Source: Candidatus Latescibacterota bacterium
GTDB taxonomy: Bacteria > Latescibacterota > UBA2968
Length of the DNA: 64,000 nucleotides
Reading direction: 5' to 3'
Assembly: GCA_965208125.1 (NCBI GenBank)
Contig: OZ242320.1
Coordinates: forward strand, 5,683,751 to 5,747,750
Of the stretch, positions 15,472 to 25,986 are shown one piece after another. Each line of letters opens with the position of its first letter. Position 1 is the first letter of the stretch. The position numbers and the translations under genes were made by a program. A model generated the notes under the pieces. It saw only the letters and a list, made by a program, of their open reading frames with translations, did not search any database and was not told the DNA's origin.

Positions 15472-17001
15472 ATGGATTCTAAGACCATGAAACGAATTTT
15501 AATATGCTGGATCGGCAACACAGACTTACAAGCCTGTGAAGGGGAAGATGTAGGTGTGGGGCCTATCGCCCAAGCACTGAACAAGCGCGAATTTGATAAG
15601 GTCTTTTTCATCACCGATTATGAAGATACCCGCGTAAAGCCTTACATCAACTGGATACAAGAAAAAACTCCAACGCCACACCAACTATTTTATAGACATC
15701 TTTCAAGCCCCACCCACTTTGGGGAAATTTACGAGGCTGCTGCAAGCGTCTGCCAGGAAGCTCTGGATCAATATGGCAATCAAACAGAACTAACCTTTCA
15801 TCTCAGCCCCGGCACGCCAGCAATGGCCGCGGTATGGATCATTTTGGCGAAAACGCGCTTTCCCGCTGAATTGATCGAATCCTCAAGAGCGCACGGCGTT
15901 CAAACCGCCTCCGTACCCTTTGATATTTCTGCAGAATTTTTACCCACCCTCCTGCAAAAACCCGATGCAGAACTCCGCTCATTAAACGAAGAAAAACCCA
16001 CAGAACCAGCGAATTTTGAAAACATAATATACAGGAGCCAGGCCATAGCGCGCGTGGTCGAAAAAGCAAAGCGTGCTGCCGTGCGGAATATCCCCGTCTT
16101 ATTCGAAGGAGAATCTGGTACAGGAAAAGAACTCTTTGCGCGCGCTATTCACCAGAACAGCCCGCGAAAAGAAGGGCCATTTATCCCCGTAAACTGCGGC
16201 GCGATTCCTCCCAATCTCGTGGAATCTGAACTGTTTGGGCACAAGGGAGGTGTGTTCACAGGCGCCCCTTATGATCGCAAAGGCCACTTTGAAAAGGCAA
16301 ATAAAGGCACCATCTTTTTGGATGAAATTGGCGAATTGCCCAAAGATATACAGGTAACAATATTGCGCGTCTTACAAGAAGGAGAGGTCGTGCGACTCGG
16401 TGAATCCGAACCCCAAAAAGTAGATGTACGCATTGTTGCGGCGACAAATCGAAATCTCATTGAGGAAGTTAGTGAAGGACGGTTCCGCGAAGACCTGTTC
16501 TATCGGCTTGTAGTAGCCTATCTCAAATTGCCCCCACTGCGCGAACGCACGGGAGATTTGGGGCTGTTAATTGACCATTCGCTCGAACTGATCAATCAGG
16601 AGAATGAAACGCAACCCGGCTACAAACACAAAAAAATTTCCGCTGGCGCAAGAAATCTTCTTCTCAATTACCATTGGCCCGGCAATATACGCGAGTTACA
16701 AAACACGCTCAGACGCGCAATGGTGTGGACAGACGAAGAAACTCTTACAAGACAAGACATTGAAGAAGCTCTCTTACCCGCGTTTGGAAAACAAGACGAA
16801 GATATCCTGAATCGCCCTCTGGATGCGAATTTCAGCTTGCCCGATCTGATTGATGAAGTTGCAAAACACTATCTTAACCGCGCTTTGCAAGAATCTAAAA
16901 CAAAAAAAGAAGCCGCAGAACTCGTGGGATTACCCAGTCCACAGACCTTTACCAACTGGGCAAAAAAGCACGGCGTAGCAATTGATGAAAAAAGAAAATA
17001 G
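15472..17001 (+). CDS. Sigma54-dependent enhancer-binding protein with RtcR/CARF-like N-terminal domain
   Basis: GESGTGKE, ESELFGH, GVFTGA (GAFTGA variant), FLDEIGE, WPGNIREL, C-terminal HTH; N-terminal ILICWIGNTD and FHLSPGTPAM resemble the RtcR CARF-type sensor. Confidence 0.85.
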   Translation: MDSKTMKRILICWIGNTDLQACEGEDVGVGPIAQALNKREFDKVFFITDYEDTRVKPYINWIQEKTPTPHQLFYRHLSSPTHFGEIYEAAASVCQEALDQYGNQTELTFHLSPGTPAMAAVWIILAKTRFPAELIESSRAHGVQTASVPFDISAEFLPTLLQKPDAELRSLNEEKPTEPANFENIIYRSQAIARVVEKAKRAAVRNIPVLFEGESGTGKELFARAIHQNSPRKEGPFIPVNCGAIPPNLVESELFGHKGGVFTGAPYDRKGHFEKANKGTIFLDEIGELPKDIQVTILRVLQEGEVVRLGESEPQKVDVRIVAATNRNLIEEVSEGRFREDLFYRLVVAYLKLPPLRERTGDLGLLIDHSLELINQENETQPGYKHKKISAGARNLLLNYHWPGNIRELQNTLRRAMVWTDEETLTRQDIEEALLPAFGKQDEDILNRPLDANFSLPDLIDEVAKHYLNRALQESKTKKEAAELVGLPSPQTFTNWAKKHGVAIDEKRK

Positions 17002-17038
17002 AGAAATTTTTAAAAAAATATCAAATTTTAGAGTGCAT

Positions 17039-17054
17039 TGGCACGAAATATGCT
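17039..17054 (+). promoter_or_regulatory. Sigma54 -24/-12 promoter 1
   Basis: TGGCACGAAATATGCT, exact GG-N10-GC spacing, directly after the EBP gene. Confidence 0.85.
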
Positions 17055-17091
17055 TGAACAGTGAGCGTGACAGCGACGTGGACTCCCGGCA

Positions 17092-17244
17092 CCTGAAGAA
17101 ATTTCTTGACAAAGCTGCTGTATTAGTGAAAAAATTAGCATGCTGACCCATTCCAAAGTAGAGAAAGTTGGGTATTCCAAAATTTGTCAATCCCAAGCGT
17201 TTCAGACAAACCTGAACGTTTTTTTCACCTTGTGAGAAATCATG
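17092..17244 (+). repeat. Conserved ~150-bp leader, copy 1 (upstream of ATPase 1)
   Basis: Aligns by eye with 21233-21388; contains TTGACAAA...TTTGTCAA inverted repeat, two ATTCCAAA boxes and a CGTTTCAG/CTGAACG hairpin. Confidence 0.8.
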
Positions 17245-19347
17245 GCCAATTTAGATATTAAAAACCTAGTGAAGGAACTATTTCCTAGCAGCGTAAAGGA
17301 CCCGGGGTATCAAAGGTATTTGGAAGGATTCATTGAAGAAGGATTAAAAACTGAAAATTCTTATAAATTTCAACATCTTACATCTATTGTCATTGAAAAT
17401 TTCAAGTGCATCGGCGATGCCGTAACTATTCCCATTCGTCCCATCACATTGTTATTTGGAAAAAATAGTTCGGGTAAATCAACAGTGTTACAGGCACTGC
17501 GTTATGGCTACGAAATGTGGCAAGGTAAATTAGCCAGCCATATATCAATGAGCGGTGGCTTTAATATTGACTTTAGTGATTTTCCCGCCCTGGTACATGG
17601 CCATGATCTGGACCGAAAAATTCGAATTCGCTTCGAATATACCTTTGATTTCGATACCCAATATCCTACTTATGAATTTAGCGAAGTGGTAACAGGTTGG
17701 AAAGATGGACAAGGCAATATCGTGTCATGGTTATGGGGAATGAGCAAGAATAACGAGGAACTGATTCGTTGTTCCTTTGATAGCTTAGAAGCCCACACAC
17801 ATGATACGATATTTGGCTCAAATGGTGAGGAATTGATCCGTTTGAAAGAAAAAAAAGGGTTCCCAAAGTTTTCTCCAGAAATATATGTGAATACTAATAA
17901 TATTCATAAGGATTCTATAGATTTCCAGTTAAATATAATTAGGTATAGATTACTGCATCAGCAAGAACTTACAGAATCCTCTAGCGATATTCAACATTTG
18001 GGACCATTCCGTGAAGTGCCCCAAACGCTTGATAACTCATGGGAAAAAGGAATTGGAGCCTGGAATACTCTCGCTCGTGATCCGGAATTGCTAAAAGAAA
18101 CAAATCGCTATATGAGAGATATTTTGAAACTTGGATACACCATCAGTGATATCACACTTGATAGTCAAGAAAAGTCAAATATCACGCTTGATATGAATAG
18201 TGAAATCATGGAAAAGTTAAAAAAAATTTGCAATTCTGAAGACATAAAAGTTGATGAATTAAAAAAACAGGTTTATGATCCTCTTGTGCTATTATCTCGC
18301 CAACCTGTGATTAAACTTCATGACGAAAATGAGAATATAGAAGTTGGTCTCTCAGATATTGGTGTTGGTATCGCCCAAATTATTCCCGTTGTGGTGGGGA
18401 CATTAGACGATAGCCACGGAATTTTTTTAGTTGAACAGCCAGAGCTTCACATTCATCCTGCTGTTCAGGTGGCTTTGGGCGATGTATTCATTGACAGCAT
18501 AAAAACTAAGCAACTGTTTTTAGATGATTCTCAATTCATACAAGAATGGGCTCATTCTTTTCTAGCCGGAGACGAGACCTATAAGAAATTTTACTCCAAG
18601 TTTATCTCCAAGCTACAAAACAGTCCGGACTTCCTTGAAAAGAAAAAAAATATCAATAACCCTGCTTCTTTTTATAATATTTCCTCTAAGATTAGCGGCC
18701 TCATAATAGACAGCATAAAAATTGGGCAAGAGTGTTTTGATTTTTCTCTATCTTTGCAAGAGGCTTCAGATAAATTTCTCTCCAAAATGGAAAATAGCTT
18801 TGATTTTTCTCTATCTTTGCAAGAGGATTCAGATAAACTTCTCTCCAAGATAGAAAACAGCAAGGAAGACCTACTTGATATTAAAGGACGGACATTTAGA
18901 AAGGAAGATCTACTTGAAAGCGTCAAAAATATCAATGATCCTGCCAATGATCCTGCTTTTTATTATGAGATTATTGACCTCATAAAAGATAGCCATCAGG
19001 ATATTCTAATAGTTGCCGAGGGGTTAAACAAAAAACAGAGAGAATTAGGTAAAAAGCGTATAAAAGATCTCTTAAGTATGGGTAAAAATAGTAATCGCAC
19101 TCTACTCATTGAAACGCATTCAGAGCACCTGTTACTGAGGATTATGAGGCGGATGCGTGAGACGTTTGAAGACAGAATTGAAGAAAATCGATTTCCTGTA
19201 ACCCCCGATGATATTGCCGTGCTATTTGTCGAAAGGCATGATTCGCAAACAATCATACGGGAAATGCCTGTTAATGAACGTGGAGAATTGGTAAAAGCCT
19301 GGCCTGGCGGTTTTTTCGAGGAAGATATAGAAGAGGTATTTGCTTAA
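17242..19347 (+). CDS. ABC-type (AAA_15/AAA_21, DUF3696-like C-terminus) ATPase 1
   Basis: IENFK, Walker A GKNSSGKS, signature-like GVGIAQ, Walker B/D-loop VEQPELHIHP, H-loop IETHSEH, terminal WPGGFF. Confidence 0.85.
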   Translation: MANLDIKNLVKELFPSSVKDPGYQRYLEGFIEEGLKTENSYKFQHLTSIVIENFKCIGDAVTIPIRPITLLFGKNSSGKSTVLQALRYGYEMWQGKLASHISMSGGFNIDFSDFPALVHGHDLDRKIRIRFEYTFDFDTQYPTYEFSEVVTGWKDGQGNIVSWLWGMSKNNEELIRCSFDSLEAHTHDTIFGSNGEELIRLKEKKGFPKFSPEIYVNTNNIHKDSIDFQLNIIRYRLLHQQELTESSSDIQHLGPFREVPQTLDNSWEKGIGAWNTLARDPELLKETNRYMRDILKLGYTISDITLDSQEKSNITLDMNSEIMEKLKKICNSEDIKVDELKKQVYDPLVLLSRQPVIKLHDENENIEVGLSDIGVGIAQIIPVVVGTLDDSHGIFLVEQPELHIHPAVQVALGDVFIDSIKTKQLFLDDSQFIQEWAHSFLAGDETYKKFYSKFISKLQNSPDFLEKKKNINNPASFYNISSKISGLIIDSIKIGQECFDFSLSLQEASDKFLSKMENSFDFSLSLQEDSDKLLSKIENSKEDLLDIKGRTFRKEDLLESVKNINDPANDPAFYYEIIDLIKDSHQDILIVAEGLNKKQRELGKKRIKDLLSMGKNSNRTLLIETHSEHLLLRIMRRMRETFEDRIEENRFPVTPDDIAVLFVERHDSQTIIREMPVNERGELVKAWPGGFFEEDIEEVFA
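18736..18861 (+). repeat. 63-bp tandem duplication inside the ATPase 1 insertion
   Basis: Two units starting at 18736 and 18799, encoding FDFSLSLQEASDKFLSKMENS / FDFSLSLQEDSDKLLSKIENS. Confidence 0.9.
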
Positions 19348-20300
19348 TGGCTTTATTTTCTGAGTATGCTGTAACACCTGATGTGTTTAATGAGAGTTGT
19401 TATGATTCGCCAGCATTGTGTGATGCATATTTTAGACAATTGCTGGAAGTTTTTTTGAGTGAAGGGCTCGTTCGAAATCTTCGCAATGGCGAATGGCAAG
19501 CGTTCTTTTCAATCCCTGCAAGACCCTGGCATTCCCGTATAAAGCATATTTTGAAAAATTTGACAGATGCTGGTCGCTTAGTGCCAGGCGATCCAGCATT
19601 AAGTCATATACCTCAGACTGATCGTGAATGGTGCAACGAGGCACTGGCTTCGCATGACACCACACCTTTGAATGGTATTATAGTGAGTGATGCTATTGAA
19701 AGGACCTATCGCAGAAATCAGTTGGTTGAAAGTGTGAGCAGACTATCGCAATCTACCTGCGCGTGGTGGGAACCCACAAATAGCTCGCTTCGGTTAGAAC
19801 GTACTATCAGTCAGTATATAGACGCTCTTAAGCTGATTCTCAAACATGCTAAATCCATTATGTTTATAGACCCCAATATTGATCCAGCAAAGAGCAACTA
19901 TGCTAATTTTATACAATTGCTTGAAGCAGCAGGTAATAGACCATCACAATCACCCCGGCCACTCGTTGAGATACACCGCAAAAGTCTTCGCGGCTCTGGG
20001 AAAAATGCTCCCCTATGGGATCAACAAGACATGGAAGATACATTTCGAACCGAATTTGGCCCAGTTCTTTCGCAGTCAAACTTAAAAATAGAAGTCTTTA
20101 TATGGGACGATTTTCATGACCGTTATTTGATCAGCAATTTAGGAGGAATACTGGTCCCCTATGGATTTGACACGTCAAGCAAGCCTGATGACTTAACAAC
20201 ATGGTCACGACTTGGACGGTCTGATCGAGATGATGTACAACGCGAATTTGCTCGCGAGAGCAATAAACACAAATTACTGTTTAATTTTACGATACCGTAA
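19347..20300 (+). CDS. ATPase partner 1, hypothetical with PLD-like (HDR) C-terminal domain
   Basis: TAATG overlap with ATPase 1; IMFIDPN and FHDRYLIS..GGILVPYGFD motifs. Confidence 0.6.
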   Translation: MALFSEYAVTPDVFNESCYDSPALCDAYFRQLLEVFLSEGLVRNLRNGEWQAFFSIPARPWHSRIKHILKNLTDAGRLVPGDPALSHIPQTDREWCNEALASHDTTPLNGIIVSDAIERTYRRNQLVESVSRLSQSTCAWWEPTNSSLRLERTISQYIDALKLILKHAKSIMFIDPNIDPAKSNYANFIQLLEAAGNRPSQSPRPLVEIHRKSLRGSGKNAPLWDQQDMEDTFRTEFGPVLSQSNLKIEVFIWDDFHDRYLISNLGGILVPYGFDTSSKPDDLTTWSRLGRSDRDDVQREFARESNKHKLLFNFTIP

Positions 20301-20303
20301 AAT

Positions 20304-20341
20304 ACGGTGAGTGTCGAGAGATACTCACCGTTTTATTTTTT
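20304..20341 (+). terminator. Rho-independent terminator
   Basis: ACGGTGAGTGTC-GAGA-GATACTCACCGT hairpin followed by a T-rich run. Confidence 0.8.
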
Positions 20342-20586
20342 ATGGCGACCAAGATGTGGAGGGAGGGAAAGAAATAGCGATTTCCAAGGTTGTTGATCAA
20401 CGAAAGAATACTCCTAAACAAACATAAAAAAATTTACACTCCCACAATAAATTTTACTCCTACCATCATTTCGGCTTGATTAGCGAATGTGCAGACACCG
20501 CCTTTATCGCGTTTACGGAGTGGAAATTGGTAAAAAATCAAGGAAAAAGAACAAAATTTATCAAAAAATCAAAATTTAGGTCGGAT

Positions 20587-20602
20587 TGGCACGGAATATG
20601 CT
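20587..20602 (+). promoter_or_regulatory. Sigma54 -24/-12 promoter 2
   Basis: TGGCACGGAATATGCT, 15/16 identical to promoter 1, with a similar upstream AAATTT..AAATTT(T)AG tract. Confidence 0.85.
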
Positions 20603-20726
20603 TAAACGATAGGCACGACAGCAATCGGGATGTTAGGAAGTAGGATTAAGGGCAGTAAACAGGTAGAAACGTCAGGTTATTAGCAAAAATTTGTGTGTCC
20701 TGATACACAACTCAGGAGGTATTGCA

Positions 20727-21038
20727 ATGAGTATTTTTCGGAGAGGACGGCCCAGCCGACAAAAACCGCCCAATAGACCTGGGATATACCGGTTTAGAAA
20801 CAAGCTAACAGGAGAAGTTGATTATATCGGCGAAGCTGTAGATATAGCACGCAGGATAGTTACCCATCTTCGATCACCCAAACCCGTATCGCGTGACACC
20901 CACTATGTCGAATGGCAGGCAGCAGACCGCAGAAGCACATCGAGAACTCGCCGAGAACATGAGCGAGCTAAAATTAACAAACACAAGCCGCGGCTGAACA
21001 AGCGAGGCGGCGGTGGCGGCCGAAGAGCCAACCGATAA
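20727..21038 (+). CDS. Small stand-alone GIY-YIG nuclease-family protein
   Basis: PGIYRF...DYIGEA..IARRI..H, conserved E and LN; AGGAGG RBS before ATG 20727. Confidence 0.8.
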   Translation: MSIFRRGRPSRQKPPNRPGIYRFRNKLTGEVDYIGEAVDIARRIVTHLRSPKPVSRDTHYVEWQAADRRSTSRTRREHERAKINKHKPRLNKRGGGGGRRANR

Positions 21039-21098
21039 TCGCATCACGACTGATGCTCCGACACTTTTTGGAAACTTAGACTGAAAGGAGGTGATTCT

Positions 21099-21194
21099 GT
21101 GTTTACATTGCTAAAGATATGCGTGCCTGTCGTGGTTGCGCTGGCTTTCGAGGTGGTCGAAAATTGGTCGGACATCACGAAAGATAAGCGGTAG
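21099..21194 (+). CDS. 31-aa Fst/Ldr-like hydrophobic peptide (putative type I toxin)
   Basis: AAAGGAGGTGA RBS, GTG start; MFTLLKICVPVVVALAFEVVENWSDITKDKR; below the ORF-track cutoff. Confidence 0.6.
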   Translation: MFTLLKICVPVVVALAFEVVENWSDITKDKR

Positions 21195-21202
21195 CGGCAG
21201 TA

Positions 21203-21237
21203 TCAGGGATGGGGAATCTATTTTCCCCGTCCCCTGA
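21203..21237 (+). terminator. GC-rich hairpin after the peptide ORF
   Basis: TCAGGGATGGGGAA-TCTATT-TTCCCCGTCCCCTGA. Confidence 0.6.
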
Positions 21238-21388
21238 AAGAATTTCTTGACAACCTGATGTGTTGTTTGAAAATTTGAAAACAGGCCGACCTATTCCAAA
21301 GTGCAGAAGGTTGGATATTCCAAAAATTTGTCAACTTCAAGCGTTTCAGATGAGCCTGAACGCTTTCACCAACTTATGAGAAAGCATG
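21233..21388 (+). repeat. Conserved ~150-bp leader, copy 2 (upstream of ATPase 2)
   Basis: Aligns with 17092-17244 up to the CATGGC start context. Confidence 0.8.
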
Positions 21389-23203
21389 GCTATTACATCT
21401 ATCACCATCGAAAACTTCAAGGGCATTGGCGATGCCGTGACGGTTCCTATCCGTCCCATCACCTTGTTATTTGGCAAAAACAACGCGGGTAAGTCAACGG
21501 TACTACAGGCGTTGCACTATATGCGCGAAGTATGTGAACATGCAGGAGCCGATCCAGATCGCACACACATGGGTGGAGACTATATTGACCTGGGTGGTTT
21601 TCGTTCTCTGGTGCATCTTCATGAGTTGAATCGGAAAATTCGGATCCGAATTGAATTTGACCTGACATCCGAAGAATCGAAAATTTTGAATCGAATTTTG
21701 GAACATGTGACCAATCCGGATTCCGCGTGGATAGAAGTGGTAACAAGTTGGAATGCAGAAGAACATAATGTTTATACTGAGTCATACGGATATGGACTTA
21801 ATGGAACCGAGTGGTTGTATCTCAGGCTACTAAAAGAAAGACCCGAAGAAAAACCCAGCGATATGATTGTCTTAAATGGTACAGAATGGCAGCGATTAAA
21901 TAATACTGCGTTTCTAAATATTAATCACCCGGACATTAAGGAGACAATAGCAGATGATTATCAAAAAAAAATAAATCCTGACATACTGCGCCGGTTGCCG
22001 GAAATTGCACTCAAAGAATTGCGTAATATACGATATTTGGGACCCATGCGAAAAATTCCCCCACGCGATTATCGCCCGCAACAAACGCCCGAAGAATCGC
22101 TATGGGCAGAGGGATTAGAGGCCTGGAATACACTTGGAAGAGATCCTCAATTGGTGAAAAAAATAAACCGCTATATGCAAGATGTTTTGAAAATGGGATG
22201 TAGTATTAGCCGGCAGGAAATCATCTCGCTTGATGAGGATGGCGAGATCATGAAAAATCTAAAAAAAATTAGCAACTCTAAAGACTTCAATGTTGATGAG
22301 TTAAAAAAACAAGTTTATGATCCACTCGAACAATTACCCCGCCAAATTAGAATGAAACTCTATAATAAAGAAAATGCTATCGACTTGGATTCCGCAGATG
22401 TTGGTCTGGGTATTCCCCAAGTTATTCCAGTTTTGGTGGGTGCTTTGCACAGCGGCCGACCAGATCCTAAGCGGTTTTATTTGACTAAACCACCGGGAGG
22501 TTTTTTTGCGGTTGAACAGCCAGAACTTCACTTGCACCCCGCCGCTCAAGTGGCTTTGGGTGATGTGTTTATAGACTGCATAAAATACAACCGTGATCAT
22601 CCTATTCGAGTGGCTTTAGAAAGGATTATAGAATTTATAGAAAATAGCGATACCGAGATTGTGGCCTTCAAAGAGTTCATTGAGAGTATGGGAGAAAACT
22701 GCGATCATCCGGATATTCAAGAGGAAGCGAATAAGATCATCGCTAATCTAAAAAGCAGCAATTATCCGGATATTCGAGAGGCTTTCGTCAGATTCATTGA
22801 AAGTATAAGAGAGAACCGCGATCATCCGGATATTCAAGCAGCTATCGAAGAATACATGAAAAAAATACAAAATCGTAATCCTGATATTCAAGTAGCTTTT
22901 GAGGAGTTCTCTGATAGTAGAAAAAACAGTAGCTATCGCACCATGCTCATTGAAACACATTCTGAGCACTTGCTATTGCGATTGCTACGACGTGTGCGTG
23001 AAACAACCCGTCGTAGCAGACGCCAGACCACCGAGTTAGAACAGACAGTTCACGAATTGACACCTAATGATCTTTCTGTGGTCTATGTTCGACCCACGCC
23101 AGCAGGAGTTAAATTCACTCCACTCACTGTAACGAATGATGGTGATTTTGATGCACCATGGCCAGAAGGCTTTTTCGAAGAACGTGATTCGGAGTGGTAT
23201 TAA
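21386..23203 (+). CDS. ABC-type (AAA_15/AAA_21, DUF3696-like) ATPase 2, paralog of 17242-19347
   Basis: IENFKGIG, GKNNAGKS, GLGIPQ, VEQPELHLHP, IETHSEH, WPEGFF. Confidence 0.85.
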   Translation: MAITSITIENFKGIGDAVTVPIRPITLLFGKNNAGKSTVLQALHYMREVCEHAGADPDRTHMGGDYIDLGGFRSLVHLHELNRKIRIRIEFDLTSEESKILNRILEHVTNPDSAWIEVVTSWNAEEHNVYTESYGYGLNGTEWLYLRLLKERPEEKPSDMIVLNGTEWQRLNNTAFLNINHPDIKETIADDYQKKINPDILRRLPEIALKELRNIRYLGPMRKIPPRDYRPQQTPEESLWAEGLEAWNTLGRDPQLVKKINRYMQDVLKMGCSISRQEIISLDEDGEIMKNLKKISNSKDFNVDELKKQVYDPLEQLPRQIRMKLYNKENAIDLDSADVGLGIPQVIPVLVGALHSGRPDPKRFYLTKPPGGFFAVEQPELHLHPAAQVALGDVFIDCIKYNRDHPIRVALERIIEFIENSDTEIVAFKEFIESMGENCDHPDIQEEANKIIANLKSSNYPDIREAFVRFIESIRENRDHPDIQAAIEEYMKKIQNRNPDIQVAFEEFSDSRKNSSYRTMLIETHSEHLLLRLLRRVRETTRRSRRQTTELEQTVHELTPNDLSVVYVRPTPAGVKFTPLTVTNDGDFDAPWPEGFFEERDSEWY

Positions 23204-23205
23204 TT

Positions 23206-24213
23206 ATGCTGAGTATTTTTGCTATTGATCCCAAAATATGTGAAAATTTGGAGTGGTTTCGATATTGCACAGAGCACTGCCAGCCATCACAAGGACGTGT
23301 AATTGCAGATTTGCCATCCGGCCAGTGGTATGAAAGTGCAAATGCGATTCTTGATCAACACGTCCAAGAGCTTAATCTTCCCCCCATCAAAGTACGCAGT
23401 TTGAAAAGCTGCCTGAATATGGTGCGAGACCAACTGGTAGATCGACCAGGAACTGAGCAGACGAACTGGTATGATATTTCACAATTTTCTTGGATTACCG
23501 AAGTAGAGAAAGAGCATCAGCGAGAACGTTTTTCTGCTGTCATCAGCCCTGATTACGAGGGAACTGATGACACGGAGCTAAAGTATCATCCTGACGGTCT
23601 CAATAGAAGTGTAGAAGCATGGAATACGCCCAGTGGCATTGCAATCACGCGCAGTCCTGGAGAATTTGTAAATGCCATTTTGCCAATGCTTCGGGTTACA
23701 TCGAATATTCATTTTGTAGATGGATATTTTAACGTGGACGCTAATAGCTTGTTTACCGAAAATTATCAACAGATTATTGAAGACTTAGCCAAACACCGTA
23801 ACACACCAGATTATCCTTTTCCAGAACTGACAATTCATTGCTGCCCAGATCCAGATGAAATGACTGAGAAAGGTAAAAGAAATATTAAAAAGGGCCTTGA
23901 AAAGCATTATGCGGATTTAATACCAAGGGGGAAGTCTGTAACGGTTTTTGCGTGGCAGATAGAGGAAGATGTAGAAATAAAAAAAGGTAACCACCCTTTC
24001 CACAATCGCTATGTGCTGACTAAACATTGCGGCGTAATCGTGGGATATGGTACGGATAGTGCAAAAGCACCAACTGATGCACCAGACATCCTTCAGATTG
24101 TTGACCATGAAATATTTCTGAACTTGTGGAATCAAATTCAGGATGAGGAATTTCCTATGCTCTGCATTAAGAAGGAAAATAAGTTTGTGATTAATGGTAC
24201 TAAAGGTCCATGA
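23206..24213 (+). CDS. ATPase partner 2, hypothetical with PLD-like C-terminal domain
   Basis: FAIDP N-terminus like YAVTP of partner 1; IHFVDGYF and FHNRYVLT..GVIVGYGTD. Confidence 0.6.
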   Translation: MLSIFAIDPKICENLEWFRYCTEHCQPSQGRVIADLPSGQWYESANAILDQHVQELNLPPIKVRSLKSCLNMVRDQLVDRPGTEQTNWYDISQFSWITEVEKEHQRERFSAVISPDYEGTDDTELKYHPDGLNRSVEAWNTPSGIAITRSPGEFVNAILPMLRVTSNIHFVDGYFNVDANSLFTENYQQIIEDLAKHRNTPDYPFPELTIHCCPDPDEMTEKGKRNIKKGLEKHYADLIPRGKSVTVFAWQIEEDVEIKKGNHPFHNRYVLTKHCGVIVGYGTDSAKAPTDAPDILQIVDHEIFLNLWNQIQDEEFPMLCIKKENKFVINGTKGP

Positions 24214-24401
24214 TTAAAGGCGTATAATACGATACCACAAAAAAGAGACTCATCACGAACAATGGGCGGTAAATGTTCGAGGCAAGTCAAAGGTGTTGCA
24301 TGCACTACGCTATTACCACGCAATTTGTAATAACGAATTGTGGCCTTGATCCCGAGGAGGCTCATAGTTAGATTCAATGGTGATTCCCAAGAGGATGAGA
24401 C

Positions 24402-25613
24402 ATGAGCGATAACTACCACAACTATCAGTTGCTATTGGCAAAAGTAGCCCAACTTTACGAGAGGCATGGGATCGGACTTCCGGACCCATTCAATGTCTTC
24501 TCTTCGCTGAAAAATAAAAATGGGTACCTGAACGAGACTCTGCATTCACGGTTTCTTTGTGCACTGTTTGACTATAAGAAGCCGGGATATGAAACCAGAG
24601 AGAATCTGAAGGACTTCTTGCTACATATTGGCGTAAAGGATTTTGAACTATGTGGTGTAAGGGTCGAGCCGGAGTGCGACGGCATCGACATCCGAATCAC
24701 CAACGCTAACAAAAAGGCGCTGGCGATTGAAAACAAAAGCAATCCTAAGCGCGGGGATGAAGATAAGCAACTATGGAGGTGTTATCATACATTGAAAGGT
24801 CAGGGTTACAGAGACATAAAACTGCTGTACCTGACACCTGACGGCCATAAGCCTTCCGACAATAGCGTTGGTAATCTTGACCACAAGCGTATTAAATGCA
24901 TTTCCTACGAGGGTCTTATTCCTTGGTTAGAAAGTTGCCAAGAACGCGACGAAAACGAAACCGCGTTGCAGGATGCAGTCGCGCAATACCTACAGCTTGT
25001 CCGAGAGTTGGCAGGCACAGACGGCAGGGGGAAATATATGAGCGATTTAAAGGAACTTTGTCGGGAGGATAACAACTTTGTTCTTATCCGTGATTTGAGA
25101 GATGCTATACGTGAAGTAGAGAAAGAATTGCGAAAGGAAATATGGGACAAAATAGAATGTGAGCTAAAATCGAAAATTCAATACTTTCCTCCCGATAAAA
25201 AACGATATAAACAGGATAATAAGGGCCTATGCTACCAGTTGAGTGAATCCACCTCGCTCGAGGTTGTAGGCGACCCCACCATCTGGTTCGGGGTCCGTTG
25301 TTCTAAAAAGAAGTATAAAGACAAATATGACACGCTCAAAAATGCACTGGAGGATGTGAATGGTGAAAAACCACACGATGATTATCCTTTTTGGCAAAAG
25401 GTCGATAGATTGGAGGACCTCTCGCTGCTATTGAAAGATGCTGAGCGGCAGAAATATGCAAAAGAAACCGCACAGAAAATCGTCGAAAAAGGTTTGAAAG
25501 AAGTCTGGGAAGTTCTTGAAGACTTAGCTCTGGTGAATGCAATCAAAGAAGGAGAAAAAACAGAGCTTGTCCCCGAAGAACAGATATTTGAGATATTAGA
25601 AAGGATATCTTGA
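24402..25613 (+). CDS. PD-(D/E)XK nuclease family protein (PDDEXK_4-like) with antitoxin-like C-terminal tail
   Basis: FNVF, ETLHSRFL, IDIRI, AIENK, QLWRC, LYLTPDG; tail LEDLALVNAIKEGEKTELVPEEQIFEILE. Confidence 0.75.
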   Translation: MSDNYHNYQLLLAKVAQLYERHGIGLPDPFNVFSSLKNKNGYLNETLHSRFLCALFDYKKPGYETRENLKDFLLHIGVKDFELCGVRVEPECDGIDIRITNANKKALAIENKSNPKRGDEDKQLWRCYHTLKGQGYRDIKLLYLTPDGHKPSDNSVGNLDHKRIKCISYEGLIPWLESCQERDENETALQDAVAQYLQLVRELAGTDGRGKYMSDLKELCREDNNFVLIRDLRDAIREVEKELRKEIWDKIECELKSKIQYFPPDKKRYKQDNKGLCYQLSESTSLEVVGDPTIWFGVRCSKKKYKDKYDTLKNALEDVNGEKPHDDYPFWQKVDRLEDLSLLLKDAERQKYAKETAQKIVEKGLKEVWEVLEDLALVNAIKEGEKTELVPEEQIFEILERIS

Positions 25614-25616
25614 ATT

Positions 25617-25883
25617 TTGAAAGTCCTATTCAGAAACAGTTTTGGAAGAGATCTCAGACGTATCCGAAATCGATCTATTGGAGAGCGCGTCAAGGAAGCG
25701 ATAGAGCAAGTCAAGGAAGCAAGCGATCTTACAGAGATCAGTAATGTCCGAAAACTCCGTGGCGGCAGAAACCATTACCGCGTTCGGACCGGCGACTATA
25801 GGATTGGATTTCAATTCAACGAGGGCACCGTAATTTTCGTACGATGTTTGCCGCGCCGAGATTTTTACCAACACTTTCCCTGA
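25617..25883 (+). CDS. Type II toxin, RelE/ParE family
   Basis: 88 aa, basic; SFGRDLRRI, KLRG, YRVRTGDYRIG, RRDFY. Confidence 0.85.
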   Translation: MKVLFRNSFGRDLRRIRNRSIGERVKEAIEQVKEASDLTEISNVRKLRGGRNHYRVRTGDYRIGFQFNEGTVIFVRCLPRRDFYQHFP

Positions 25884-25986
25884 CCACCTCGCCTACCAAA
25901 TGCTCAAGTTCCTCCTGCATCTATTGCCCGCATCCGTCCCCTTCTATACCAATCCCCACTTCCACTTCTCAATCCATAATCGCCTT

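Follow-up and report, generated by a model that had tools for sequence, protein, structure and literature searches.

Can an ABC ATPase and the small protein encoded directly behind it form a defence module of their own when the sensor that defines their nearest named relatives is missing? The question is raised by 64,000 nucleotides of a Candidatus Latescibacterota bacterium genome (GCA_965208125.1, contig OZ242320.1, positions 5,683,751 to 5,747,750, forward strand), called the window below and numbered from its first letter. Two ATPase-partner gene pairs lie on its plus strand, at 17242-20300 and 21386-24213. On balance, we lean towards regarding them as two paralogous, self-contained modules of the Menshen-core (NsnB plus NsnC-like) or HEC-03 kind that lack NsnA and sit in a defence hotspot anchored on an RtcR-type regulator gene. 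A sequence-only reading of the same DNA had instead proposed a family parallel to the Septu and PARIS defences, with a phospholipase D (PLD)-fold effector in two specificities.

Coupled gene pairs and mosaic ATPases

An open reading frame (ORF) check placed both pairs on the plus strand and bore out the claim that they are translationally coupled, with stop and start codons overlapping or two bases apart. ATPase 1 (17242..19347, 701 amino acids (aa); NsnB-like, AAA_15 plus DUF3696) is followed by partner 1 (19347..20300, 317 aa), which has an N-terminal alpha/beta domain at about residues 1-135 and a domain of the MIT_C-type PLD-like kind at about 136-317; the two genes share one base in a TAATG stop/start. 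ATPase 2 (21386..23203, 605 aa, also NsnB-like) ends with a TAA at 23201-23203, and partner 2, which carries the HNR variant described below, runs from there to the end of the pair (23206..24213). Because homologues of partner 2 begin with MLxIFAIDP and an ATG at 23206 sits two bases past the ATPase stop, this ATG (335 aa) is probably the start rather than the GTG at 23194 (339 aa).

The ATPases are 38% identical to each other (E value 1e-89). The partners share 23% identity over 171 residues (E 3e-9), and profile-profile comparison related them over 243 columns (probability 97.8%, E 8.3e-13). On these sequence comparisons the two partners are true but distant homologues, in keeping with their earlier description as very divergent proteins with common motifs. 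Those motifs are all present and coincide with invariant columns of each family. They comprise EYAVTPD in partner 1 and IFAIDP in partner 2 at the N-terminus, IMFIDP and IHFVDG internally, and FHDRY-x6-G-x5-G-x-D (F256...D275) in partner 1 and FHNRY-x6-G-x5-G-x-D (F269...D288) in partner 2.

A scan with one genome per species yielded 79 related loci from many phyla, of which the closest (L001-L006) are from Latescibacterota and 88-92% identical. An ATPase ORF ended at the partner start for 91 of the 97 partner ORFs with room upstream, so the pairs are conserved together, as the sequence-only reading had implied. The six exceptions were split ORFs or fragments, a copy interrupted by an insertion sequence (IS), with a transposase between ATPase and partner (L007), and remnants. 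One pair was present in 56 loci, two in 13 and three in 3 (7 of the 79 were not evaluable), and tandem arrays occurred in Latescibacterota and Vicinamibacterales. Since the number of pairs per locus varies while the ATPase-partner linkage is kept, each pair stands as a unit of its own, and the two copies in the window represent one state of an array that varies. The partner superfamily is large: its profile matched 3,322 representatives of clusters at 50% identity at E<=1e-3, 2,552 at <=1e-10 and 1,334 at <=1e-30. Among 150 listed matches, nearly all were 290-335 aa long and aligned end to end.

Both ATPases matched Pfam AAA_15 (3.6e-19 for ATPase 1 and 7.1e-23 for ATPase 2). DUF3696 was matched by ATPase 1 above the cut-off of 22 bits (1.3e-5, 25.7 bits) and by ATPase 2 below it (0.012, 16.2 bits). 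Among PADLOC models, PDC-M55A (4.3e-43 for ATPase 1, 3.3e-37 for ATPase 2), NsnB (2.2e-37, 2.4e-37) and HEC-03B (4e-28, 9e-28) left AriA (9e-21), GajA, Old and PtuA (1e-7, ATPase 1 only) far behind, and an NCBIfam scan gave only sub-threshold P-loop matches. The nearest solved relatives by sequence were OLD, GajA, the Eco8 OLD nuclease, PtuA, AriA and Rad50/SMC heads. Long variable inserts and a C-terminal DUF3696 tail make up the architecture, with a Walker A GxNxxGKS followed by LGPxR, GxG...Q, EQPE, ETHSE and a WPGGFFE tail. In 40 aligned ATPases, taken from the ORFs adjoining partner genes, G73, N75, G78-K79-S80, R257, G374-x-G376, E398-Q399-P400-E401, E624, H626-S627-E628, W687-P688 and G690-F691-F692 were invariant. 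These proteins therefore carry EQ for the DE of Walker B, arginine for the Q-loop glutamine and GxG for the SGG signature. By sequence they belong to the NsnB (Menshen)/HEC-03 branch.

Comparison of pair 1 with six related loci (L001, L002, L003, L005, L006 and L028) revealed mosaic ATPases. The ATPase tail (residues 611-701) was 88-93% identical to that of ATPase 1 in all six, and the partner was 87-96% identical to partner 1 in L001-L003 and L005. Identity was 68-73% in the ATPase head (46-130), 39-49% in the core (251-425) and 22-27% in insert 1, and insert 2 of ATPase 1 (185 aa) was absent from all six. Tail and partner identity is thus high and middle identity low, and therefore the tail tracks partner type and the middle is replaced wholesale. 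Pair 2 followed the same pattern of constant tail and partner with a replaced middle, and the window's two ATPase tails are only 40% identical to each other. The idea of two specificities remains plausible, but this comparison places the variability in the ATPase middle and not just in the partner.

Insert 2 of ATPase 1 contains a 63-nt tandem repeat (two copies, 92% matches) at 18736-18861, so that a helical segment of 21 residues occurs twice in the protein. At the corresponding place, ATPase 2 is repetitive too, but with another sequence ('DHPDIQ...').

In a published AlphaFold 3 model of NsnB4-NsnC2, the N-terminal domain of NsnC is gripped by a pair of DUF3696 tails (PMC12065111). The mosaic pattern fits this arrangement and makes the inserts a candidate sensing surface; with tail and partner constant and the middle replaced, docking may be hypothesised for the former and sensing for the latter. 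We also predicted a complex of ATPase 1 (46-701) and partner 1 at 1:1, each with its own alignment. It scored 0.58, graded as 'weak support', and the best of three controls scored 0.00. The runs agreed in at least 85% of contacts, with a partner pLDDT (predicted local distance difference test) of at least 86. In the calibration, 116 of 157 solved complexes passed the mark, as did 2 of 215 mismatched pairs; only 18 of the 157 complexes scored no more than 0.60, and so did both mismatches that passed.

A PLD-like domain of the MIT_C type

Length-restricted searches found 663 full-length relatives of partner 1 and 71 of partner 2; where named, all were called 'hypothetical protein', and none had a Pfam domain. 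Profile searches of both families against PDB sequences returned chance-level rows only (Atg17 at 0.018, a dipeptidyl peptidase at 0.48), and a Cas11a match of partner 2 at 0.034 was taken as chance. AlphaFold2 models built on the alignments of these relatives were confident (pLDDT 91.1 and predicted template modelling score 0.88 for partner 1; 84.9 and 0.82 for partner 2). Foldseek against the PDB with the partner 1 model returned 44 matches at E<=1e-3, almost all of PLD fold, among them vaccinia F13 (2e-6), MITD1 (8.5e-6), Nuc (2.8e-4) and BfiI (5.2e-4). Against MITD1 (2ymb/4a5z), the template modelling score on the target was 0.63 for 4a5z_B, with a root-mean-square deviation of 4.3. Further matches were BJ-TSA-9/FAM83, TrmBL2, a Streptomyces PLD, PLD3, PPK1 and one lower-probability SIWI row. 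For partner 2, a Moritella PLD was the third match (probability 1.00), and TrmB, BJ-TSA-9, PLD, NgoAVII and BfiI followed between 1e-3 and about 1e-2. The proposal of a PLD fold, with Nuc, BfiI and MITD1 as structures to compare, was thus borne out by all three for partner 1 and more weakly for partner 2. In the predicted models, the fold is firm for partner 1, and it holds by homology for partner 2.

The HKD motif of the PLD superfamily reads HxK(x)4D(x)6G(S/T)xN. We aligned 35 partners, drawn from the subfamilies of partner 1 (B1) and partner 2 (B2) and from a third one seen in related loci, with 14-21% identity to partner 1. The position of the HKD lysine was arginine in all 35, and that of the HKD aspartate was asparagine, lysine or another residue. 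Describing the signature as single-HKD-like was therefore misleading, as the lysine and aspartate of HxK(x)4D are both absent; the motif is HxR, the MIT_C variant.

This assignment draws on three comparisons. Pfam MIT_C (PF16565) was matched by 7 of 36 family members (best 3.6e-4) and was the sole Pfam family with several member matches. The PADLOC models most often matched by 35 superfamily members were NsnC (5 of 35, best 0.0015) and BrxL (2 of 35, best 1.3e-4). In a protein-language-model Atlas, the nearest named clusters to partner 1 residues 136-317 were MIT_C (0.94, 198 common features). An 'HDR' motif and a resemblance to the MIT_C domain of MITD1 characterise one NsnC effector class, 'PB-PLD1', which BrxL likewise carries at its C-terminus (PMC12065111). 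The arrangement described for this class, an acidic residue after a strand and H-D-R before a later strand, is present in partner 1: D175 comes directly after strand 170-174, and strand 260-263 is preceded by H257-D258-R259. Partner 2 has H-N-R. By sequence, then, the partner domain is of the MIT_C type, D...HxR...G...D, without the HKD lysine.

The first 135 residues of the partner are predicted to form a separate domain of alternating strands and helices. By position, it would correspond to the 'inactive PIN' domain of NsnC; an Atlas search with these residues reached 0.79, below the useful level. An acidic residue stands beside P11 in all three partner subfamilies.

Such a two-domain protein could also work the other way round. 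The PLD-like domain might be a non-enzymatic binder of membrane lipid or nucleic acid, with the activity lying in a PIN-like RNase at the N-terminus or in membrane binding, a possibility that we consider unlikely though worth weighing. HxR in place of HxK and the unconserved HKD aspartate would suit it, as would the closest folds, which include MITD1, FAM83/BJ-TSA-9 and TrmBL2; the PLD-like domain of MITD1 is reported to be a binding module. The N-terminal domain has its own invariant P11, W50 and W95 in addition to the acidic residue beside P11, and the effector of HEC-03 is a PIN protein (10.1101/2024.01.29.577857). However, across all 35 partners R152, D175, H257, R259 and G267 were as invariant as those N-terminal residues, and D275 was nearly so, together with A8, W141, L165 and G273. 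At 14-21% identity, such conservation is what an active site or a pocket for a specific ligand typically shows. Furthermore, the PIN-like domains of NsnC are described as lacking catalytic residues, and its C-terminal domains have been proposed as the effectors (PMC12065111).

The RtcR-type regulator, candidate sigma-54 promoters and the genomic setting

The gene before pair 1 (15472..17001, plus strand, 509 aa) encodes an RtcR-type enhancer-binding protein with CARF, sigma-54 AAA+ and helix-turn-helix (HTH) parts. It matched PADLOC RtcR_PspF2--CARF_AAA_HTH at 4.1e-195 (residues 7-502 on positions 1-480 of the 481 in the model) and Pfam Sigma54_activat at 1.6e-68. The window protein itself gave no match to Pfam RtcR; 8 of 14 aligned homologues did (best 3e-10), and five matched a Csm6 CARF model. 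Judged by these domains, it has the RtcR family layout of CARF, sigma-54 interaction domain and HTH. By tblastn, a homologue lay within about 9 kb of the pair in 34 of the 79 loci, with identities of at least 49% in 29 and of 34-40% in 5.

Sigma-54 promoters are of the form GG-N10-GC, with the consensus TGGCAC-N5-TTGCW. Two sigma-54-type promoter motifs (both TGGCACG-N4-ATGCT) were found on the plus strand: P1 at 17039..17054, 38 nt past the regulator stop and about 200 nt before ATPase 1, and P2 at 20587..20602, upstream of pair 2 and of a small GIY-YIG-like ORF. The strict motif TGGCACG-N4-WTGCT (TGGCACGNNNNWTGCT) has exactly two exact matches in the window, both on the plus strand and one before each module. 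When one mismatch was allowed, 0.65 matches were expected by chance and 13 of 100 shuffles gave at least two; the motif count alone is therefore not significant, and the sigma-54 case rests on the positions of the motifs and their recurrence. In 1.25 Mb of loci, a near-consensus motif occurred 41 times on the module strand and twice on the other; 23 occurrences follow the regulator gene at a distance of no more than 400 nt, and 25 precede an ATPase ORF by up to 700 nt. In Latescibacterota, Vicinamibacterales, Binatia and a delta-proteobacterial contig the motif came directly after the regulator gene, and in Vicinamibacterales second pairs had motifs of their own in front. The alignment between P1 and P2 extends over about 45 nt around and beyond the latter. 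A search for common upstream activator sites found only an A/T-rich box (AAAAAAT..TCAAA..TTTAG) immediately upstream of both motifs, at 17013-17033 and 20559-20582, which may be a binding site for IHF or the activator.

Between promoter motif and ATPase gene stands a leader of about 150 nt, leader 1 (17093..17241, plus strand), with a TTGACA box, a palindrome (TTGGrTATTCCAA) and a hairpin (GCGTTTCAG/CTGAACG) with a T-run. It is duplicated as leader 2 before ATPase 2 (21236..21385, plus strand). Fourteen copies precede ATPase genes in the Latescibacterota arrays, two in the window and 12 in L001-L007 and L028. All share an invariant TTGAC box, the palindrome TTGGATATTCCAA and the hairpin, and some have a T-run after the hairpin. 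A sigma-70-like match starts at 17106 in leader 1; the duplicated leader contains no sigma-54 motif, these motifs lying upstream of it. As covariation in the consensus fold of the 14 copies was almost nil (1 of 18 predicted pairs, covariation term -0.54), we claim no RNA element here. The leader may be a sigma-70 promoter with an operator and an attenuator.

The island spans approximately 16.9-25.8 kb, with a GC fraction of 0.35-0.45 compared with about 0.48-0.53 in its flanks. In close relatives, two or three pairs in varied combinations lie between the regulator gene and an SHMT gene, with IS elements in some. The best explanation is a variable defence hotspot anchored on the RtcR-type regulator gene. 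IS elements (with rve, DDE_Tnp_1 and Mutator-type transposases) have inserted in or between the pairs of L005, L007 and L028, splitting a partner gene in L028.

Across the 79 loci, pairs recur in two contexts: at the end of type I restriction-modification (R-M) operons, or as one to three pairs behind an RtcR-type activator. Directly upstream of the pair, hsdM and/or hsdS was found in 20 loci, and a type I hsdR with an EcoEI-type C-terminal domain lay further upstream in 15 of the 15 checked, giving the order hsdR-hsdM-hsdS-ATPase-partner. A regulator homologue stands before an R-M operon ending with a pair in seven loci (L009, L010, L011, L020, L023, L053 and L067). RtcB or RtcA was considered for the gene between regulator and R-M genes and rejected, as this gene was hsdR in every case checked. 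Other neighbours are those of defence islands: ABC-3C components, AEP-TOTE, HEPN, OLD-TOPRIM, reverse transcriptase, MazF/Panacea, SIR2, HerA, KwaB and pP_pnuc_1.

The regulator invites another explanation, namely that the modules are an RNA-damage response in an RtcR-type regulon, with the PLD domain processing damaged RNA ends like Tdp1 or PLD3/4. RtcR-type genes and sigma-54 motifs do stand directly upstream in two phyla, PLD3 is among the structural matches of partner 1, and RtcR activates the rtcBA RNA-repair operon (PMC7790460, PMC9650030, PMC11090510). Against this, neither RtcB nor RtcA occurred among the neighbours scanned (two genes of at least 140 aa on each side of the pair, with 11 upstream and 4 downstream candidates left out), more than half of the loci have no regulator, and 20 loci lie inside type I R-M operons, with others beside known defence genes. 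Low GC, paralogues in tandem and an ATPase that is mosaic and hypervariable are in line with conflict systems, and the ATPase relatives NsnB and HEC-03 come from phage-validated systems (PMC12065111; 10.1101/2024.01.29.577857). We therefore regard an RNA-damage response as improbable.

The link to the regulator might, conversely, be incidental: the pairs would be expressed from the sigma-70-like leader promoter under palindrome and hairpin control, and the RtcR-type gene would only mark an integration hotspot. The TTGAC box and the palindrome are kept in all 14 leaders, some of which have no sigma-54 motif just upstream; the regulator gene has a host-like GC fraction (0.475-0.495) and the cargo a low one; and the cargo between the regulator and SHMT genes differs among relatives. 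However, the sigma-54 motif recurs after the regulator gene in several groups and before second pairs in Vicinamibacterales, its strand bias is 41:2, and the only two matches in the window both precede modules. An incidental link seems to us to have little chance of being the full account.

Several smaller features complete the island. Pair 1 is followed by an intrinsic-terminator-like hairpin (20304..20341, plus strand), with a 12-bp stem and then TTTATTTTTT. Directly behind P2, a small GIY-YIG-like ORF (20727..21038, plus strand, 103 aa) starts at an ATG behind AGGAGG. It fell just under the Pfam GIY-YIG cut-off (1.8e-4, 22.2 bits against 22.6) and has only the GIY...YIG start of the domain; homologues stand before later pairs in L002, L007 and L008 (tblastn, 71-92% identity). 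Between this ORF and leader 2, a tiny ORF of about 31 codons (21099-21194; GTG behind AAGGAGG) would encode a hydrophobic peptide. The only Rfam match in 16900-25900 was CC2171 over this tiny ORF (21075-21233), sub-threshold at 25.8 bits against a gathering score of 75 and taken as chance. Past pair 2, by 190 nt and at the end of the low-GC island, lies a gene for a PD-(D/E)XK protein (24402..25613, plus strand; Pfam PDDEXK_4 5.8e-19, PADLOC candidate PDC-S26 1.9e-58), homologues of which follow the last pair in L005 and L006. It is a third candidate defence gene and at most a putative member of the system. Beyond the sequence-only reading, the analysis adds this gene, an N-terminal partner domain, a regulator of RtcR type and a pair of sigma-54-type promoters.

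Several arrangements were seen at individual related loci. In L014 (426-3164) and L030 (1457-4285), HsdR has an extra N-terminal Peptidase_S24 (LexA-like) domain (5.3e-6 and 3.1e-6, respectively), and the operons end with a pair. A different AAA_15/AAA_21 ATPase of about 580 aa directly precedes the NsnB-like ATPase in L021, L031, L034 and L061, itself preceded in L031 and L034 by a protein of about 1,500 aa without a Pfam match, which suggests another recurrent arrangement. A pP_pnuc_1 protein ('predicted pPIWI-associating nuclease', to 8.9e-23) lies directly upstream of the ATPase in L014, L015, L062 and L069, preceded in L015 and L069 by a Hypoth_Ymh protein.

A working model and its place among known systems

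In NsnA-less modules of the Menshen-core or HEC-03 kind, the reading that we lean towards, an ATPase oligomer would hold the N-terminal domain of the partner through its DUF3696 tails, as suggested by Septu, PARIS, Gabija and the NsnB4-NsnC2 model. By the same analogies, the variable ATPase middle may recognise a phage-derived cue as its trigger, and ATP binding or turnover could then free or switch on the C-terminal MIT_C-type PLD domain of the partner. This domain would act as a phosphodiesterase on a nucleic-acid substrate through the D175/H257/R259/D275 cluster and would stop the infection, the presumed defence phenotype against phage. The CARF domain of the RtcR-type protein would bind a ligand, by analogy with RtcR an RNA-damage signal, and so raise transcription from the two sigma-54-type promoters, if these are in use.

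A number of observations weigh against this reading. DUF262, the mark of NsnA, was found neither among the 15 window proteins around the pairs nor, at E<=1e-5, among 107 upstream and 108 downstream neighbour proteins of related loci (two genes of at least 140 aa scanned per side, with 11 and 4 further candidates dropped), and because this defining sensor is missing, we do not file the locus as Menshen. The window partners had no direct family match in Pfam, NCBIfam or PADLOC, and it is through minorities of the family, at weak E values, that they are linked to MIT_C and NsnC. Partner 2 had only three Foldseek matches at E<=1e-3, the first two being Argonaute-type rows (SPARDA and Siwi) at low probabilities of 0.25-0.28. 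Without the lysine and aspartate of HxK(x)4D, the partners have the fold alone in common with Nuc, BfiI and the PLD enzymes, and several of the best structural matches (MITD1, FAM83/BJ-TSA-9 and TrmBL2) are PLD-like domains not known as enzymes. The complex score amounts to 'weak support' only, and its 1:1 stoichiometry is possibly non-native. As to control, 45 of the 79 loci show no RtcR-type gene within the DNA examined, so the regulator is not obligatory. The sigma-54 promoter calls rest on matches to a general consensus, P2 lies about 800 nt upstream of pair 2 with two small ORFs between, and the TTGACA box conserved in every leader means that sigma-70 transcription may be what counts.

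A bolder version would be inducible second-line immunity, in which the RtcR-type CARF protein detects RNA damage brought about by infection or by a first-line defence and fires several sigma-54 promoters, each driving an NsnA-less pair with an HxR PLD domain that is a true phosphodiesterase and an ATPase middle that is a sensor cassette swapped by recombination. As a whole we hold this to be unlikely. Its parts would nevertheless be consequential: an HxR phosphodiesterase would give the first enzymatic function for a fold common to BrxL and human MITD1, and the ATPase middle would be an exchangeable sensor flanked by parts that stay constant, leader and head on one side, tail and partner on the other.

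The pairs are informative in other ways. If they defend alone, the Menshen core of NsnB and NsnC works without a DUF262 sensor, and sensing falls to the ATPase. A defined function would be the first annotation for the partner family, with its 3,322 representative clusters. Whether MIT_C-type PLD domains are enzymes, a question raised for BrxL and MITD1 (PMC12065111), could be tested directly on the conserved D/H/R/D pocket. The wiring through RtcR and sigma-54, which recurs pair by pair in two phyla, makes a tractable example of defence induced at the level of transcription.

Menshen is the closest known system. It is defined by NsnA (ParB-DUF262 plus ParBDB) encoded before NsnB and NsnC, and its 2025 survey (Li et al., NAR) describes 1,997 systems gathered only through DUF262 neighbourhoods (PMC12065111). 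Pairs lacking NsnA therefore lie outside the net of that survey. Menshen and the window pairs alike have an AAA_15 plus DUF3696 ABC ATPase with the same kind of degenerate Walker B, Q-loop and signature, since NsnB is described as departing from DE in Walker B, from Q to R in the Q-loop and from SGG to GxG (PMC12065111). Both have a downstream protein of about 300 aa with an N-terminal alpha/beta domain and a C-terminal effector, in PLD types with D...HDR like MIT_C, and both are frequently associated with type I R-M and occur as several variants in one genome. They differ in that Walker B is EQ here and EN in the NsnB of S. silvestris (PMC12065111). We found no published link of RtcR to Menshen in the literature searched.

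HEC-03 is a two-gene system of an ABC ATPase and a VapC-like PIN protein; defence in E. coli required both genes, and the system was discovered inside another one (Payne et al., bioRxiv 10.1101/2024.01.29.577857). It resembles the window pairs in combining an ABC ATPase with a small effector, and the window ATPases match the model HEC-03B. Its effector is a PIN protein, whereas that of the window pairs is PLD-like, and the partners match no HEC-03 model.

In the solved complexes of Septu (PtuA/PtuB), PARIS (AriA/AriB) and Gabija (GajA/GajB), an ATPase dimer or oligomer holds the effector (PMC12065111). An OLD-type ABC ATPase controls a nuclease in all three, and the general logic of ATPase and effector, for which Septu and PARIS had been invoked, holds for the window pairs. 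Their effectors, however, are HNH or TOPRIM proteins, they are without the DUF3696 tail, and their ATPase models match much more weakly. Pfam and PADLOC detected neither the HNH domain of Septu PtuB nor the TOPRIM domain (DUF4435) of PARIS AriB in the partners, whose fold is PLD-like, and the AriA match of the ATPases is secondary (9e-21 compared with 2e-37 for NsnB). That the pairs form an independent family parallel to Septu and PARIS, with a single-HKD PLD nuclease of the Nuc/BfiI kind in two specificities, is very improbable: the PLD fold, with Nuc and BfiI among the matches, and an AAA_15 ATPase with weaker AriA, PtuA and GajA matches would agree with it, but the best ATPase matches are NsnB (2e-37), PDC-M55A and HEC-03B (4e-28), the HKD motif is absent, and a PLD-type NsnC effector has already been published in Menshen (PMC12065111).

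The MIT_C domains (PF16565) of MITD1 and of the BrxL C-terminus share the PLD-like fold with D...HxR; here the domain is instead fused to another N-terminal domain and coupled to an ABC ATPase. Catalysis by MIT_C has been raised only as a hypothesis in the survey text consulted (PMC12065111).

For the setting, the closest parallel is CoCoNuT, where defence 'superoperons' of co-directional genes, type I R-M among them, begin with an RtcR homologue (Bell et al., eLife 2024, PMC11090510). Induction of these superoperons by RNA fragments with cyclic phosphate ends has been proposed (PMC11090510). Both settings have a CARF-AAA+-HTH RtcR protein at the 5' end and often type I R-M before the terminal system. 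They differ in the terminal system, which is of McrBC type with HEPN there and here comprises a single ATPase/PLD-like pair or up to three, a number of which have a sigma-54 motif to themselves. PrrC and RloC are ABC-ATPase anticodon nucleases in type I R-M loci. Likened by description, they too place an ABC-ATPase effector within a type I R-M operon, but they are single polypeptides with another nuclease domain. The HEC-03 study, too, names them among ABC-ATPase defences (10.1101/2024.01.29.577857).

Precedents thus exist for the NsnB-type ATPase, the PLD/MIT_C-type NsnC partner, two-gene ATPase-effector systems and RtcR-headed defence operons. Their combination, a family of NsnA-less pairs in tandem arrays with sigma-54 motifs and a swapped ATPase middle, was not found in the literature searched, which covered the Menshen survey without its supplement. 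New here are a very large unnamed family of NsnA-less pairs, tandem arrays with a sigma-54 motif for each pair behind an RtcR-type gene in two phyla, and an ATPase middle that is swapped between a constant head and a constant tail and partner.

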